Part shown: positions 156 to 54,173 of the stretch, one piece after another
Numbering within the stretch: position 1 is the stretch's first letter
Layout of the letters: each line of letters opens with the position of its first letter
Origin: an uncultured Alphaproteobacteria bacterium
GTDB lineage: Bacteria; Pseudomonadota; Alphaproteobacteria; HIMB59; GCA-002718135
Reading direction: 5' to 3'
Assembly (NCBI GenBank): GCA_902518895.1
Contig: CABYHL010000003.1
Span: 19,789-83,788, forward strand
Length of the DNA stretch: 64,000 nt
Position numbers and translations under genes: made by a program
The notes under the pieces: model-generated
What the model was told of the DNA's origin: nothing
Database searches by the model: none
What the model saw: the letters and a program-made list of their open reading frames with translations, nothing else

Positions 156-1545
156 TCCTAAAACTCTTTTTGATAAAATTTGGGAACATCATCTTGTTGA
201 TAGACAGGATGATGGAACTTGTCTTATATATATTGATAGACACCTTGTTCATGAAGTTACGAGCCCTCAAGCATTTGAAGGTTTAAGAAATAATAATCGT
301 AAAGTTAGAAGACCCGAAAGTACTTTTGCTGTAGCTGATCACAATGTTCCAACCTCAGATAGATCTAAAGGTATAGAAAATAAAGAAAGTAGAATTCAGG
401 TTGAAACACTAGAAAAAAATTGCAAAGATTTTGATGTTACACTTTTTCCATTATTAGATAGCAGACAAGGTATAGTTCATATAGTTGGACCAGAACAAGG
501 CATTACTCAGCCAGGTATGACAATAGTTTGTGGTGATAGTCATACAGCAACACACGGTGCATTTGGTGCATTAGCTTTTGGTATCGGCACAAGTGAAGTT
601 GAGCATGTATTAGCTACTCAGACCTTAATTCAAAAACCTGCAAAGAATATGCGAATTTCTGTTGAAGGTAAGTTAAACTTAGGTGTTACAGCAAAAGATA
701 TTATTCTTCATATAATAGGAGAAATAGGAACGGCTGGCGGAACTGGTTATGTTATTGAATATGCTGGTAATGCAATTTCCTCTCTTTCTATGGAAGGAAG
801 AATGACAATCTGCAATATGAGTATTGAAGCAGGTGCTAGAGCTGGTTTAATCGCTCCTGACGAAAAAACTTTTGAATATATTAAAGGTAGACCTTACGCT
901 CCATCAGGAGATTATTGGAATAAAGCGGTAGAATTTTGGAAATCTCTTCCATCTGATGAGGGCGCAAAATATGATGAAGAAATTTTAATTAATGCTGAAG
1001 ATATTTCACCACAAATAACTTGGGGCACAAGCCCACAAGACGTTGTTGCTATAGATGGTATAGTACCAAACCCACAAGAAGAGAGTAACCCGAATAGAAA
1101 GAGGGCTATGGAACGTTCTCTTGAATATATGGGTTTAGAACCCAATCAAGAAATACAAAAAATTAAAATTGATAAAGTATTTATTGGCTCTTGCACTAAT
1201 GGAAGAATTGAGGATTTAAGAGAAGTTGCCAAAGTTGTAGAGGGCAAAAAAGTTTCTGTAGACTCAATGATCGTTCCTGGTTCAGGTCTAGTTAAAAAAC
1301 AAGCTGAAGAAGAAGGTTTAGATAAAATTTTTATTGAAGCAGGATTTGATTGGAGAGAGCCAGGTTGCTCCATGTGTTTAGCTATGAATCCAGATCAATT
1401 AAAACCACAAGAAAGATGTGCATCAACATCAAATCGAAATTTTGAAGGTAGACAAGGTAGAGAAGGTAGAACACATCTTGTTAGTCCTGCAATAGCTGCT
1501 GCCTCCGCAATCAAAGGTTCTTTTGCAACAGCAGAGGATTTATAA
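142..1545 (+). CDS. leuC: 3-isopropylmalate dehydratase large subunit
   Basis: [26 protein letters not shown] and PGCSMC motifs. Start moved to ATG 142 because the longer ORF overlaps the upstream gene. Confidence 0.97.
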
Positions 1546-5218: not shown

Positions 5219-6121
5219 TTTTTTAATAAAATCTTTTAAAATTGCATCCCTTTTGATTTCGTAAACTATTTTTATTGGATGTCTGTTTTTGTCTGAACTC
5301 CAACTCATATCATTCAATAAAATTGGAGAAGGTATTATATTAGTTGGAGCCCAATCTTCGTTTAAAACATAACCAACAGCTGCCATGTCCCAAATTTCTT
5401 TTGACCAACCTTTATGTATATTATTGTACTCTTTAAATCGCATTGCAAGAAATTTACCAATTTGACCATGAGGCTCTATATATTTTTCGATTTCTGGAAC
5501 TGTAGAAATAAGATGTGAAGTTACACCCTTGCAAGGAACCATCACTAGTGAGACACCGCAATCAAATAAAACTTGAGCACCTCCAATATCTTGCTTTAGA
5601 TTAAACTCTGAATTTTGTGGCCAATAAATTGCATTACCACCCAACCAAACTACAACAATTTTTTTAATAATTTCTGGCTCTTTCAATAATGCCGAGGCAA
5701 CATTAGAAATAGCACCTATGGCTATTACGTGTAGAGGATCTTCTTCAGTACATTTTAAAGCACTTTCTATGATATTATCTGCTGCAGGTGAACAAATAGG
5801 TTTTTTTTCAAAACCTACATATTTTGTTGATCCTTTAAAAACAAAATCATTTTTTTTAAAATTTATTTTTTCTAACAACCGAAAGATTTCATCATAACTG
5901 AGCTCCATTCCCTTCTTTGGATTATCTGAACGATTATTCATTGAAAAAGGAGCAGCATTTATACTTTGCACTTCTATTTTTTCTTTTGAAAACAACATTT
6001 GCACTAAAGCAAATTGATCATCAATTTCATTGTAGGTGTCCGTATCAAGAATAGCTTTAATTTTTCCTTTTTTAAACTCAAGTTGTTTTAAAATATCTGA
6101 AAAATCTCTCTCTAAAAGCAT
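5189..6121 (-). CDS. nucleoside hydrolase (IU-NH superfamily)
   Basis: Asp-rich Ca-binding motif LDTDTYNEIDD, IGAISNVA, WLGG and SEFNL. Confidence 0.88.
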   Translation of the reverse strand: MLLERDFSDILKQLEFKKGKIKAILDTDTYNEIDDQFALVQMLFSKEKIEVQSINAAPFSMNNRSDNPKKGMELSYDEIFRLLEKINFKKNDFVFKGSTKYVGFEKKPICSPAADNIIESALKCTEEDPLHVIAIGAISNVASALLKEPEIIKKIVVVWLGGNAIYWPQNSEFNLKQDIGGAQVLFDCGVSLVMVPCKGVTSHLISTVPEIEKYIEPHGQIGKFLAMRFKEYNNIHKGWSKEIWDMAAVGYVLNEDWAPTNIIPSPILLNDMSWSSDKNRHPIKIVYEIKRDAILKDFIKKLENFVSSSH

Positions 6122-8730: not shown

Positions 8731-9764
8731 TGTTTAATGTTATTGATCAATACAATAGTTTTGTTGAAAATAATTTTATTAAAAAAAATAAAGATCAAAT
8801 TGAATTTTTAAAACAAGCAGATAATGTATGGTCATCTTTTAGTAAAACAAAGTTATTTTTTAAGGATAAAATTTTCGAAGGAATTTATCTTTATGGTCAA
8901 GTTGGGACAGGAAAAACATTTTTATTAAATTTATTTTATCAAAATACCAAGATTGGAAAAAAAATTCATTTTAATAACTTAATGAATGAAATCCATGAAC
9001 AAGTTAAAAAATCAGAAAATAAAGAACTTGCAATCGAAAACTATGTAAAAAATTTAAGTAGAGATTTCAAAATAATATTTATTGATGAACTACATATTTT
9101 TAATATTGTTGATGCACTAATAATAAAAAAAATATTTAATTATTTTTCTAAATATAAAATATTTGTATTACTGTCGTCAAATTTTCATCCAGATAATTTA
9201 TATAAAGATGGTTTGCAGAGAAATGACTTTCTGCCATTTATTGATTTAGTTAAAAAAAATTTTTTTCTTTATGATATTAGTATTAAAACTGATTTTCGTC
9301 GACAAACTTTAAATCAATCAAAGACATATTTCACACCTATAACAACTGACACAACAAATGAATTTGAAAAATTATTTAATCGCTTTGTTGATCCCTCCCA
9401 TTTAACAACTGTAAAAATTAAATCTAAAAGTCGTGAACTAGAGTTTGATAAATGTACATCAAATCTAATGATGATAGATTTTGAAAATCTTTGTGAAGTA
9501 AATTTTGGTAATGAAGATTATAAAAATATTGCAGATAAATTTAAGTTGGTATTTTTAAAAAATGTTCCTGAATTTGATAATCATAAAAAAGATGCGTGCA
9601 GAAGATTTATTGGATTAATTGATATGTTATATGAAAATAATTGCTCAACAGTAATTTTAGCATCAAAACCTATAAATTCATTAAATAATATAAATACTCT
9701 AGCAGAAGAATTTAAAAGAACCGCTAGCAGATTATATGAAATGACCATAGTAAAACCAGATTGA
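8730..9764 (+). CDS. zapE: cell division ATPase ZapE (AFG1 family)
   Basis: Walker A GQVGTGKT, Walker B IIFIDE, SSNFHP, LYKDGLQR and RTASRLYEM. Confidence 0.92.
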   Translation: MFNVIDQYNSFVENNFIKKNKDQIEFLKQADNVWSSFSKTKLFFKDKIFEGIYLYGQVGTGKTFLLNLFYQNTKIGKKIHFNNLMNEIHEQVKKSENKELAIENYVKNLSRDFKIIFIDELHIFNIVDALIIKKIFNYFSKYKIFVLLSSNFHPDNLYKDGLQRNDFLPFIDLVKKNFFLYDISIKTDFRRQTLNQSKTYFTPITTDTTNEFEKLFNRFVDPSHLTTVKIKSKSRELEFDKCTSNLMMIDFENLCEVNFGNEDYKNIADKFKLVFLKNVPEFDNHKKDACRRFIGLIDMLYENNCSTVILASKPINSLNNINTLAEEFKRTASRLYEMTIVKPD

Positions 9765-10750
9765 TGAAATACATAATAAGATTTTTAGTCAGTACAGTAG
9801 TTTTATTAGTAGTAGTTTATTTTACTGCAGGTTTTTATGTTGCTTATCAAATTTTAAAAATAGATCCAACTTGTGGATTACACGAAGGATCCCTTCCTAA
9901 TACATGGAGTACAACAGTTGATTCACATGAATACTCAATTCTTGCACGACAAAAAGTAAGAGAAAATTTTAACTTTAAAGATTATTATTTAGATGAATGG
10001 CAAGATGTATACTTTCAATCTCGTGATTCTGACATTAAGATTAATGGATGGCTGTTTAATTATTTTCCAAATAGACCAATTATAATTGTAACACATGGTA
10101 TAAGCCCAAATGGTAAATGTAAGTCTGAAGCCAATCTTATTGCAAGTTTTTTAGTTAATAAAAAATTTAATGTTCTGACGATAGATTTAAGAAACTACGG
10201 CCAAAGTGATACTGTAAGTAGTTATGATGATTTAGGCTTAAAGTCATATAATGATATTCTTGGTGCATTTGATTTTTTAAAAAAAATTGGTTTCAAGTCT
10301 AATAGCATTGGATTACATGGAATATCTCTTGGTGCAAGCACCTCTATTTTTGCAGCACATTCAGAACCGGAAATACGTGCAGTGTGGGCAGATAGTTCAC
10401 TTGCTGAATTTAATATGATCTTAAAAGATGAAATAGCAAGATATGGTCTTACTATAGAATTTGGGCCAGTAGTAAGTTTAGCTGGAAGAATCTTAACTGG
10501 AACTGATCCAAGAGAATTATCTCCAGCTAAAAAATTATCAAATACACAATACTATTTTTTTACTCATGGTGATTCTGATACAAGAATCTTAACACGACAC
10601 TTTAATTATTTTAAAGATTATACAAATCAAAATAAAATTAATGCTGATTTTTGGTTAGTTGAAAACTCTTATCATGTAGATGCTATGTTTAAATATCCAG
10701 AAGTATATTCTAAAAAGATGGAAGATTTTTTTAATAAAAATTTAAAGTAG
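9761..10750 (+). CDS. membrane-anchored alpha/beta hydrolase
   Basis: N-terminal TM segment, THG oxyanion region, nucleophile elbow GISLG, HGDSD and a C-terminal His. Confidence 0.85.
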   Translation: MMKYIIRFLVSTVVLLVVVYFTAGFYVAYQILKIDPTCGLHEGSLPNTWSTTVDSHEYSILARQKVRENFNFKDYYLDEWQDVYFQSRDSDIKINGWLFNYFPNRPIIIVTHGISPNGKCKSEANLIASFLVNKKFNVLTIDLRNYGQSDTVSSYDDLGLKSYNDILGAFDFLKKIGFKSNSIGLHGISLGASTSIFAAHSEPEIRAVWADSSLAEFNMILKDEIARYGLTIEFGPVVSLAGRILTGTDPRELSPAKKLSNTQYYFFTHGDSDTRILTRHFNYFKDYTNQNKINADFWLVENSYHVDAMFKYPEVYSKKMEDFFNKNLK

Positions 10751-10889
10751 GCCGGACTCTAAAACTAGTTTGTACCTTGGCAGACACCTCTCTAGAATAA
10801 GAAACTCAAATAATTATCAAACGGCGGGTAAGATAATTAAAAATTCTTGGCGTTCCTCCGAAGCTAAGAAACGAGTATTATCCGGCTTA
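10748..10889 (+). ncRNA. structured non-coding RNA (IMES-2-like candidate; family not confirmed)
   Basis: GC-enriched intergenic block with closing helix TAGGCCGGA/TCCGGCTTA and inner helices ACTC/GAGT, TAATTATC/GATAATTA and TTCTTGGC/GCTAAGAA. G-U pairs favour the + strand. Confidence 0.6.
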
Positions 10890-11080
10890 TTAAGAGTAAT
10901 ATCTATCTATTTAAAATTCAAGATTTTTAGTTAAATCTGGTATAAAATTTGGTCGATTTTCATAAAATTTGCTACTTTTTATCAACATTTTACAAACTTC
11001 CATGATAGTAAGAAAAGATAACTAAACCATTAATATTTTGAAATTTGAAGAAAAATACTTACTTATGAAACATAAGAAAA

Positions 11081-11461
11081 ATGAAAAAAATGACTGATAA
11101 TAGACCATTATCACCTCACCTATCTATTCACAAAAGAGTACTTACAGCAGTATTTTCAATTTTTCATAGGATATCTGGAATAGGATTAAGTGTGGGCGCA
11201 ATATTAATTTCAATTTGGTTTTTATTAATTAGTTTTGGTCCTGAATTTTATATTTATTTTGAAATTCTTTCTAAAAGTATTTTGTTTAAACTTGTTCTAA
11301 TGATTTGGACTGTCGGTATTTTTTACCATTTATTTAATGGATGTAGAAAATTATATTGGTCATTCGGTATTGGAATGGAATTATCTCAAGTATATAAATC
11401 TGGTTATGCTGTTATATGTTTAACTCTAATTTCTAGTTTAGTTGTCTGGTATTTTGCATGA
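11081..11461 (+). CDS. sdhC: succinate dehydrogenase cytochrome b556 subunit
   Basis: RPLSPHL, SIFHRISG and YHLFNG motifs; alternative start at 11090. Confidence 0.95.
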   Translation: MKKMTDNRPLSPHLSIHKRVLTAVFSIFHRISGIGLSVGAILISIWFLLISFGPEFYIYFEILSKSILFKLVLMIWTVGIFYHLFNGCRKLYWSFGIGMELSQVYKSGYAVICLTLISSLVVWYFA

Positions 11462-53649: not shown

Positions 53650-53684
53650 TAAATTTTAAAAATTTTTAATAATTAATATATCTT

Positions 53685-53870
53685 CTATTGCTGATTTTCT
53701 TCTTTATCAGGTCTTGTAAGTTCTTCGAGTTTACGCATTTCCTCTTCCATTTTAAGCTTTTCTTGCTCTTCGCGTTTCTTCTTACGTTCCTCAGCTTTCA
53801 TTTTAAGCTTTAACTCTTTTTGCATTTTGCGGTCTCCCGCTCTTGATTTGTGATTAAAATGGATTCCCAT
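53685..53870 (-). CDS. small highly charged hypothetical protein
   Basis: 61-aa E/K/R-rich helical ORF, GC-richer than its flanks, filling the gap between genes. Confidence 0.7.
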   Translation of the reverse strand: MGIHFNHKSRAGDRKMQKELKLKMKAEERKKKREEQEKLKMEEEMRKLEELTRPDKEENQQ

Positions 53871-53920
53871 AATGAGCGTGTATATACTAAAAATTTAATG
53901 ATTTATCTAGACTCTAAATT

Positions 53921-54115
53921 TTAATTTCTGGCAAGCCAGACAATAACGACAAAAACAAATATAGCTATAGCTTGAAAAAGTACTCTTAAACGCATTAGCT
54001 TATTACTATGATTTTTATTAAGTTTGCCATTTACAGCCATTGCTATGACCCCAATGACTACGACTGCTAGAGTTGCAGCCATAAATAAAACTAGCACTAT
54101 TTGCATTGTACCCAT
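53921..54115 (-). CDS. twin transmembrane helix small protein (HIG1 domain)
   Basis: Two TM helices with SNKLMRLRVLFQAIA. Confidence 0.88.
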   Translation of the reverse strand: MGTMQIVLVLFMAATLAVVVIGVIAMAVNGKLNKNHSNKLMRLRVLFQAIAIFVFVVIVWLARN

Positions 54116-54173
54116 ATATCTATCTATATAAAACTTTTATTGAATGAAGCAAGAATTCATACATAAGGTCAGT

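Follow-up and report, generated by a model that had tools for sequence, protein, structure and literature searches.

The locus described here raises a simple question: what occupies the GC-rich island in front of sdhCDAB in an uncultured alphaproteobacterium of the order HIMB59 (family GCA-002718135)? The island lies in a stretch of 64,000 nucleotides (nt) of contig CABYHL010000003.1 (assembly GCA_902518895.1), the whole of which is called the window below, and sits in a 330-nt spacer (10751-11080) with a hydrolase gene on one side and sdhCDAB on the other. Its GC content is 40.6%, compared to 20.1% in the remaining spacer and 31% in the window, of which about 94% is coding. A preliminary description made from the letters alone had proposed an orphan structured RNA, or a new motif, of about 140 nt, and this was borne out by the lack of an Rfam family, by covariation and by discrete contigs in RNA libraries: the element represents a family of structured small RNAs (sRNAs) that is new, restricted to this lineage and very abundant in the sea, and its gene is almost certainly a real noncoding RNA gene. 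As to function, our best guess and leading testable idea is the pairing of a Shine-Dalgarno (SD)-like hairpin loop with an RNA that bears CCUCC.

Among the matches listed, 19 sequencing runs contained the stretch (10 studies in all), 11 of them recorded as RNA. Only assembled contigs, which carry no strand, were mapped, and the uncovered parts in runs X2, X9 and X11 carry no weight on their own. In run X11, a marine metatranscriptome of approximately 83 million letters, 24 contigs were present and all of them fell within 10740-10907, the summed word depth peaking at around 10,860; in the hydrolase and sdhC flanks the depth was 0, so that these flanks provide an internal silent control. Taken literally, the depth in X11 corresponds to about 0.7 Mb of the ~82-Mb run, i.e., to the order of 1%, with the reservation that expression is poorly reflected by word depth.

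The DNA search of the family genomes recovered the element, once per genome, from 81 of 115 genomes and from six of the eight genera, as well as from 10 of the 11 genomes at least 90% complete, the eleventh having a divergent copy; the window's genome (71% complete) contains one copy. Many species shared it at 97-100% nucleotide identity, and the remoter ones retained positions 18-124 at 78-87%. The RNA thus kept 84-100% nucleotide identity where the identity of the flanking proteins went down to 50-68% of amino acids, as in the locus L045 with 85% nucleotide identity in the RNA core and 67, 63 and 53% amino acid identity in the hydrolase, SdhC and SdhD, respectively. Since the RNA core is better preserved than the neighboring proteins, the selection must act on the nucleotides themselves. 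A coding reading was ruled out by the absence of AUG in the RNA, by 1-nt indels between near-identical copies and by the invariance of would-be synonymous sites.

The predicted fold on the minus strand consists of five helices. P1 is formed by GCCGGAU at the 5' end (10880-10886) and GUCCGGC at the 3' end (10751-10757), and P2 starts with ACUCG (10872-10876), which pairs with 10804-10808. The three hairpins are P4 (10844-10870) with the 11-nt loop L4 (UUCGGAGGAAC, 10852-10862) containing the SD-like GGAGGAA, P3 (10811-10839) with the loop L3 (UUACCCGCCGUUUGA, 10819-10831) containing an invariant CCGCC, and P5 (10765-10795), where CUAG/CUAG encloses the 23-nt loop L5 beginning with AGA(G/A)GUGUCUGCCAAGGUAC. 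The complementary stretches named in the preliminary description were all present at the positions which it had assigned, as verified by reading the sequence and by an inverted-repeat search, and its P1 helix and hairpin 10811-10839 gained support from covariation: in a MAFFT alignment of 43 sequences taken in the plus sense, 7 of 9 pairs in P1 and 5 of 8 pairs in P3 were changed on both sides, the compensatory forms of P1 including GCCGG/CCGGC, GUCGG/CCGAC and GCUGAGU/ACUCAGC. Its other helices (ACTC/GAGT, CTAG/CTAG and 10844-10870) are also kept, in P2, P5 and P4, mainly through wobble-compatible changes in the MAFFT alignment which only the minus strand allows; the outer three pairs of its P1, on the other hand, lie beyond the inferred ends of the RNA. 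When the minus-strand MAFFT alignment was evaluated with all five helices, 87% of the cells were paired and 11 pairs were changed on both sides (score 0.193), and the 41 further pair types were not reached in any of 500 shuffles. Realignment of the 43 sequences with the covariance model, which is biased toward its own structure, increased these values to 90% paired and 16 of 32 pairs with double-sided changes (score 0.227), which include all five pairs of P2. P4 has a conserved internal mismatch, and its stem is kept in six genera by wobble changes only.

The apical loops varied least. L4 was identical in all 43 aligned sequences bar the member of genus g8, with GGAGGAA present also in genera g3 and g5; CCGCC of L3 was kept in all genera, g3 and g5 included, and L5 was nearly invariant across six genera. 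The kissing interaction suggested for CGGCGGG and TCCTCCG survived only as a complementarity. The core GG-A-GG versus CC-G-CC is invariant, but the sixth pair C-G, the sole change in the SD-like loop, becomes an uncompensated G.G in g3, g5 and g8, and no single pairing register fits all genera. RNAalifold on the plus strand picked this L3-L4 pairing as a helix, the reason being that it is GC-rich and invariant. Of the internal duplication that had been proposed, an exact 8-mer (TAAGAAAC) and short words remained, and the first copy was not kept in other genera.

The RNA is very probably read from the minus strand, pointing away from sdhC, as judged from sequence features of the gene: a conserved promoter, the wobble statistics and a U-rich tail. 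The -35 hexamer TTGAAT (10916-10921) is an instance of TTGAA(T/A) at a fixed distance from P1, and the -10 hexamer TACTCT (10893-10898) follows it by 17 nt and precedes the inferred 5' end by 6 nt. The same frame, TTGAA(T/A)-17 nt-TAnnnT followed after 6-8 nt by P1, was exact in 52 of 58 distinct loci, with a freely varying spacer sequence; three of the exceptions had a hexamer ending in C or A and three were off frame, namely L057 with an 18-nt spacer, L068 through a second TTGAAA, and L039 with the box outside the examined stretch. In the model-fitted alignment, G.U wobbles of the minus strand outnumbered A.C mismatches 105 to 27, and in the MAFFT alignment the wobble counts, minus to plus, were 5:0 in P2, 13:1 in P3, 28:16 in P4 and 7:0 in P5. 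The 12 nt past P1 contained on average 7.3 T in the minus sense versus 4.8 in the plus sense, and tails with at least 7 T were found in 32 of 62 loci versus 4 of 62; the U-rich terminator-like tail of the window (10732-10748, minus strand) extends into the final codons of the hydrolase gene, which runs toward the sRNA. The ends of the mature sRNA, 138 nt from a 5' G at 10886 to a 3' U at 10749, were placed by a head-to-tail joint in an X11 contig, in agreement with the promoter spacing, 10886 being the 7th base past the -10 box. Own promoter, discrete transcript, terminator-like end and conserved structure, all of which were found here on the strand deduced above, are the features of a stand-alone sRNA. 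The preliminary description had folded the plus strand, and the transcript most likely corresponds to the reverse complement of the RNA which it depicted; its exposed anti-SD CCTCC loop is then probably read as GGAGG, and its idea of an SD-masking sRNA does not apply as stated because the loop on the minus strand is the SD-like GGAGGAA.

Comparison with known RNA families left the element without a name. At the gathering score, Rfam 15 found two transfer RNAs (tRNAs) only in the whole window, and a search of 10650-11150 on both strands at E ≤ 10 gave two chance matches, ceN109 (17 bits) and nse_sRNA (15 bits). The IMES-1 to IMES-4 families, which Weinberg et al. and Shi et al. are said to have reported in 2009 as orphan structured RNAs abundant in ocean metatranscriptomes, are included in Rfam 15; the earlier guess of IMES-2 therefore failed, since neither strand of the element matched at the gathering score or at E ≤ 10. 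The sRNA resembles IMES RNAs as an abundant marine orphan and differs in that its host lineage and fixed genomic place are known. It was correctly held not to be a tRNA, signal recognition particle (SRP) RNA or RNase P RNA: ARAGORN found neither tRNA nor transfer-messenger RNA in 10600-11100, and the other two are located elsewhere, with the SRP RNA on contig C19 of the window's genome (5S rRNA being on C15) and RNase P RNA in four of the four relatives searched.

The closest functional counterparts could also be set apart. No 6S RNA (RF00013) was detected in the window, in the window's genome or in 28 family genomes at least 85% complete, whereby a missed 6S is possible, as the model matched only 5 of 14 control genomes. 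The sRNA shares with 6S RNA its abundance, its stand-alone character, the size range of ~140-190 nt, an own promoter and paired ends, but 6S is a rod with a central bubble and the sRNA is branched, with three hairpins inside P1/P2; a 6S-type rod formed through two GCCAAG/UUCUU copies was ruled out because genus g5 changes both P4 strands together. Hfq (PF17209) and CsrA (PF02599) were not found in the window's genome and five relatives 92-96% complete. An Hfq-dependent sRNA was ruled out by the former result and a CsrA sponge of the CsrB/RsmZ type by the latter, together with the presence of a single GGA loop; the likeness to such sponges is limited to a GGA hairpin loop in an abundant RNA. 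The two-site protein sponge suggested in the preliminary description is conceivable, but neither CsrA nor Hfq was detected as a partner for it. The sRNAs RyhB, Spot 42, RybB and NrrF, which control sdhCDAB in enterobacteria and neisseria, require Hfq, and we know of none of them that is encoded beside sdhC. The link of the present sRNA to sdh consists of adjacency and a shared divergent control region only, in a lineage where Hfq was not detected.

A full-text literature search did not find this RNA described, whereby the putative small RNA (psRNA) lists of Shi et al. (2009) and Weinberg et al. (2009) could hold it under a number. In the parts available, Meyer et al. (2009; PMC2704228) list no sdhC spacer among their Pelagibacter ubique candidates, the text and supplements of Stav et al. 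(2019; PMC6429828) as well as Brewer et al. (2021; PMC8632094) mention neither sdh nor HIMB59, and AEGEAN-169 figures in Hou et al. (2016; PMC5069720) as a 16S group only. The nearest described relative in kind is the SAR11 candidate sRNA-1 with its partner PBC-3, as presented in the accessible sections of Stav et al. (2019; PMC6429828). Both are stand-alone sRNA candidates forming GC-rich islands in AT-rich streamlined marine alphaproteobacteria, and both have a purine-rich, SD-like hairpin loop (GAGGGAG in sRNA-1 versus GGAGGAA here) with an exact complement in a conserved run of pyrimidines that belongs to another gene's leader. According to the same sections, sRNA-1 belongs to the HIMB5 lineage, is flanked by convergently oriented genes in the vicinity of phosphoglucomutase and Ap4A hydrolase, has two hairpins with a GAAUCA linker and a cytochrome c biogenesis leader as its partner, in contrast to the 138-nt five-helix branched fold beside sdhC; this separation is based on the description and not on sequence.

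The covariance model of the minus strand, scoring 155 bits on the RNA of the window, retrieved the sRNA from 60 of 79 sampled family genomes. With stricter Infernal filters, it was found in none of 71 genomes of the sister family f2 of the same order, including a complete 1.4-Mb genome, and in none of 150 genomes representing other alphaproteobacterial families (one genome each), both sets being samples and not whole groups. When the filters were switched off, weak matches appeared in g5 and g3, two genera that had counted as devoid of the sRNA (20.8 bits, E 7e-4, and 14.3 bits, E 0.03), located in the sdhC spacer and divergent from sdhC. As read by eye, these copies have a TTGAAA promoter followed by a new P1 with Us behind it (GCCAGGAA/UUCCUGGC in one and ACCAGGAA/UUCCUGGU in the other), one hairpin with the loop UGGGAGGAAU and one with the loop CUCC(C)GCCGG. 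The g5 copy has no P5 and, again by eye, has both P4 strands replaced (AAUAG/CUAUU); P5 is altered in the g3 homologue. A metagenome scan for this type gave seven matches, of which four were true loci and three were unrelated gut contigs; two of the four were new variants with the P1 changes GCUAGGAA/UUCCUAGC and GUCAGGAA/UUCCUGGC. From this comparison, P1 and the two hairpins with GGAGGAA and CCGCC make up the minimal conserved core. About 27 of the 80 listed matches of the pattern scan of genomic contigs, in unrelated phyla, were dismissed as chance (~34 were expected), and six pattern matches in viral contigs included none confirmed by the covariance model, i.e., a phage-borne copy was not found. 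The g3 and g5 sRNA genes have also a common 11-mer, GTGGATAAGTT, in the transcribed part (L218 2134-2144; L217 minus strand ~1187-1177); this 11-mer is complementary to a DnaA-box-like word and in g5 forms a hairpin with an upstream TTATCCA.

As to the mode of action, the following scheme can be proposed. A stable, very abundant, branched 138-nt RNA would be made in the direction opposite to sdhC, driven by a sigma-70-type promoter of its own, and its 3' end would be trimmed back to P1, which would lock the two ends together. P1 would carry a two-hairpin domain (P2 around P4 and P3) and the third hairpin P5, with the three nearly invariant apical loops as the probable working parts, and the RNA would act in trans without Hfq through pairing of L4, GGAGGAA[C], with a CCUCC-bearing RNA. 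Judged from complementarity, the chance of such an L4-mediated action is somewhat short of even. The best candidate partner would be GGUUCCUCC, which is invariant in the leader preceding the gene for a small, very basic Lys/Ala/Pro-rich protein, a choice which is clearly more doubtful than the pairing itself; the alternatives would be the anti-SD tail of 16S ribosomal RNA (rRNA) and the RNA's own CCGCC loop L3. The leader in question belongs to a 58-residue protein (contig C4, start at 5264), where GGUUCCUCC(G) is the complement of L4 (CGGAGGAAC). The duplex predicted for the L4 segment and the leader reached -23.3 kcal/mol with 13 pairs, compared to -17.1 kcal/mol only in the best of 1198 translation-start regions, and the leader ranked third of 6584 intergenic windows by duplex energy, preceded by the antisense of the sRNA itself and of 23S rRNA, which are not real RNAs. 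This leader, strongly conserved itself, was found in 81 of 115 family genomes, with GGTTCCTCC unchanged in 22 of 22 aligned leaders and present also in genera g2 and g8.

This leader (C4:5139-5279, equal to L220 440-580), whose protein begins with MAKKKKKAAPKKKKK, contains, after a TTGACT promoter, the two hairpins AUCAC/GUGAU and GGAGG(G)/CCUCC, the latter preceding the true SD, AAGGAG, and appears to be a regulatory leader itself. It had no Rfam match at E ≤ 1, and the 58-residue protein has no NCBIfam name.

Several observations weigh against the pairing and the proposed partner. The complementarity is made of SD- and anti-SD-like words, which recur for other reasons, and the site in the leader is already paired in its own hairpin GGAGG(G)/CCUCC. 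All six genera share no more than 8 pairs, with the full 13 confined to the window's clade, and in g3 and g5 the site is missing from the leader, although the sRNA retains GGAGGAA. L3 and L5 have no complement of at least 12 nt anywhere in the window's genome; indeed, none of the three loops has one, and complements of 9-11 nt occur at the chance level. Finally, the abundance, the invariance and the compact branched fold suit an RNA that binds a protein or a cellular machine at least as well. Other apparent partners were rejected on inspection: the L3 complement at the SDR/neuB junction is a coding motif (VDGGW), AAACGGCGGG on contig C27 falls within a permease gene, where it belongs to the non-coding strand, three L4 "sites" on contig C1 turned out to be antisense to a leader resembling a tandem glycine riboswitch, ACCTTGGCA of contig C4 forms the anticodon arm of a tRNA-Gly and thus matches L5 in sense instead of complementing it, and a 10-nt identity between L4 and 23S rRNA is within chance.

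The machine-binding alternative, i.e., a housekeeping or sponge RNA which binds a protein or machine instead of a messenger RNA (mRNA) and uses the invariant loops L3, L4 and L5 as contact sites, is possible at a somewhat lower level of confidence than the L4 pairing as such. The RNA could, for example, replace 6S functionally at RNA polymerase in spite of its branched form, or serve at the 30S subunit as a hibernation factor or as a decoy that mimics an SD. It would account for long loops that are near-invariant across six genera (23 nt in L5), for 99-100% identity between species, for the very high depth in X11 and for paired, trimmed ends as in stable RNAs, and it is in line with the failure to detect Hfq and with the lack of genomic complements of L3 and L5. 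The absence of Rfam 6S from the 28 more complete genomes, set against the recovery of SRP, 5S and RNase P RNAs in the family, points in the same direction but is uncertain given the poor performance of the model on the controls, and the covariation-backed fold is branched, lacking the rod shape and central bubble of 6S. Moreover, P5/L5 is dispensable in g5. For the ribosome as the target, GGAGG-type SDs precede at most ~82 open reading frame (ORF) starts in the window's genome, GGAGGAA being the commonest form (20 of 82), so that L4 copies the strongest local SD; because such SDs are rare and the 16S tail of this genome is canonical, L4 could equally be read by ribosomes. Against this, L4 shares just five pairs with the 16S tail (GGATCACCTCCTTTCT), and the conserved AA(C) past GGAGG is not explained by anti-SD pairing. 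A broader version would make the sRNA the missing global regulator of a lineage without recognizable 6S, Hfq and CsrA: super-abundant and perhaps partly circular, it would present in a hairpin loop an exact replica of the strongest local SD, accessible to ribosomes or RNA polymerase, and shift translation between a few SD-led mRNAs, such as that of the basic-protein gene, and the SD-less majority, which at present is speculative and unlikely.

Transcription from the plus strand, whereby the element would be a 3' untranslated region or terminator of the hydrolase, a leader of sdhC or an sRNA with an anti-SD CCUCC loop, is improbable and has nevertheless several points in its favor, some of which count against the minus strand. 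The plus strand folds well too (z -2.65 against shuffles, compared to -2.23 for the minus strand), and an invariant hairpin UUGG.AGA/UCU.CUAG with G.U pairs is possible on it. The three outer pairs of P1 favor plus-strand wobbles by 18 to 9, several sequences have a minus-strand A.C at one position immediately inside P2, and the U-tail is weak in the window's own clade (6 T of 12). Furthermore, low-depth contigs from the RNA libraries X2 and X9 span the hydrolase gene through the element and end at 10929/10930, and run X4 covers the whole stretch at a depth of 17; these contigs may represent plus-strand read-through or DNA. On the other side, the stretch upstream of a plus-strand RNA is coding and has no conserved promoter, and the minus-strand promoter is placed exactly 7 nt from one inferred end. 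The wobbles favor the minus strand by about 4:1, and the plus strand, with a slightly different helix set, had its further pair types reached by 289 of 500 shuffles, compared to none on the minus strand. The high-depth contigs stop at the borders of the element and enter neither gene, and a promoter-like block of sdhC lies downstream of the element. The ends of the X2 and X9 contigs, which come from different studies, are beside a T-run and may mark the 3' end of the hydrolase mRNA.

The idea that the minus-strand RNA is naturally circular, with its ends ligated in the cell, would explain both the stability and the joint, and is less probable still. The joint 10886 to 10749 in the X11 contig has a depth of 398 and no shared letters, and P1 sets both ends side by side. 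However, it is a single joint from a single run at about 4% of the peak depth, the 5' triphosphate of a primary transcript is a poor ligase substrate, and template switching of the reverse transcriptase or ligation during library preparation yields the same joint for a super-abundant RNA; the joint may thus reflect either a circular form or such an artefact. A DNA-level element, for instance within a replication origin or a regulatory region to which proteins bind, is hardly credible in spite of two DnaA-box-like 9-mers beside the element that are conserved across the order, because compensatory and wobble changes imply a constraint at the RNA level, the depth in one RNA library is massive and sharply bounded, both flanking genes have the same direction, and the GC skew has no switch and gives no origin signal at 10.9 kb.

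The surroundings of the minus-strand sRNA gene are constant in gene order: sdhC adjoined the element in 70 of the 70 fetched loci and the hydrolase gene in 69, the exception being a contig edge. The hydrolase gene (9761-10750, plus strand; Pfam Abhydrolase_1/Peptidase_S9) is convergent with the sRNA, and sdhC (11081-11461, plus strand; Pfam Sdh_cyt; the conserved start is probably ATG at 11090) is divergent from it. Three conserved blocks were recognized between the element and sdhC: the -35 box of the sRNA, a pair of DnaA-box-like 9-mers and a promoter-like block of sdhC. The latter (11038-11065, plus strand), consisting of a T-run, TTGAAA, ~16 nt and TACTTA, was evident in an alignment of 17 loci from all genera and is located some 20-50 nt ahead of the sdhC start. 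Since it lies past the element, sdhC has its own promoter there, and the reading of the element as a cis-acting leader or riboswitch of sdhCDAB, one of the options in the preliminary description, was ruled out by this position and by the strand evidence, which places the RNA most likely on the opposite strand.

The DnaA-box-like pair, which in the sdhC sense reads TATCCACAg..TTATaCACA (TATCCACA..TTATaCACA), is located between the sRNA and sdhC promoters and was conserved in all genera and in the sister family, whose sdhC spacer has the promoter and the boxes and no sRNA. Its positions are 10980-10997 in the window, 1933-1955 in L218, ~1360-1385 (minus strand) in L217 and 1937-1960 in L219; in the genus of the window the pair is degenerate (TATCAACA). 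It may represent a shared operator of the two divergent promoters.

The host clade is among the common open-ocean bacteria; the part available of PMC10308909 equates AEGEAN-169 with SAR11 subclade V/HIMB59. These pared-down genomes keep a 138-nt RNA more strictly than the neighboring respiratory genes and make it in very large amounts, which makes a central role likely. In marine metatranscriptomes the sRNA is both a nuisance and a marker, as it can absorb reads without annotation, and with its covariance model, ends, promoter and candidate partner now defined, the role of this abundant orphan marine RNA has become testable.

Three further observations concern other parts of the genome. The spacer of the sRNA, announced as the largest intergenic gap, is indeed a large one, but by crude ORF calling it is the third largest ORF-free gap of the window, exceeded by a gap which reaches the window end and by another which contains two small ORFs. 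In the latter gap (53650-54143), the two small ORFs, on the minus strand, encode a Lys/Glu-rich product of 61 amino acids and one of 64 amino acids with two hydrophobic stretches. The 245-nt leader at C1:163432-163676, which we take to resemble a tandem glycine riboswitch, contains two tandem repeats, GCCGAAGGAACGC...GUCGGAAGUAGGC, on the coding strand of the downstream gene. On contig C4 (44490-51100), the 3' half of a tRNA-Gly(GCC) gene recurs three more times in the 6.5 kb past the gene, which is the pattern of islands integrated in tandem into a tRNA gene.

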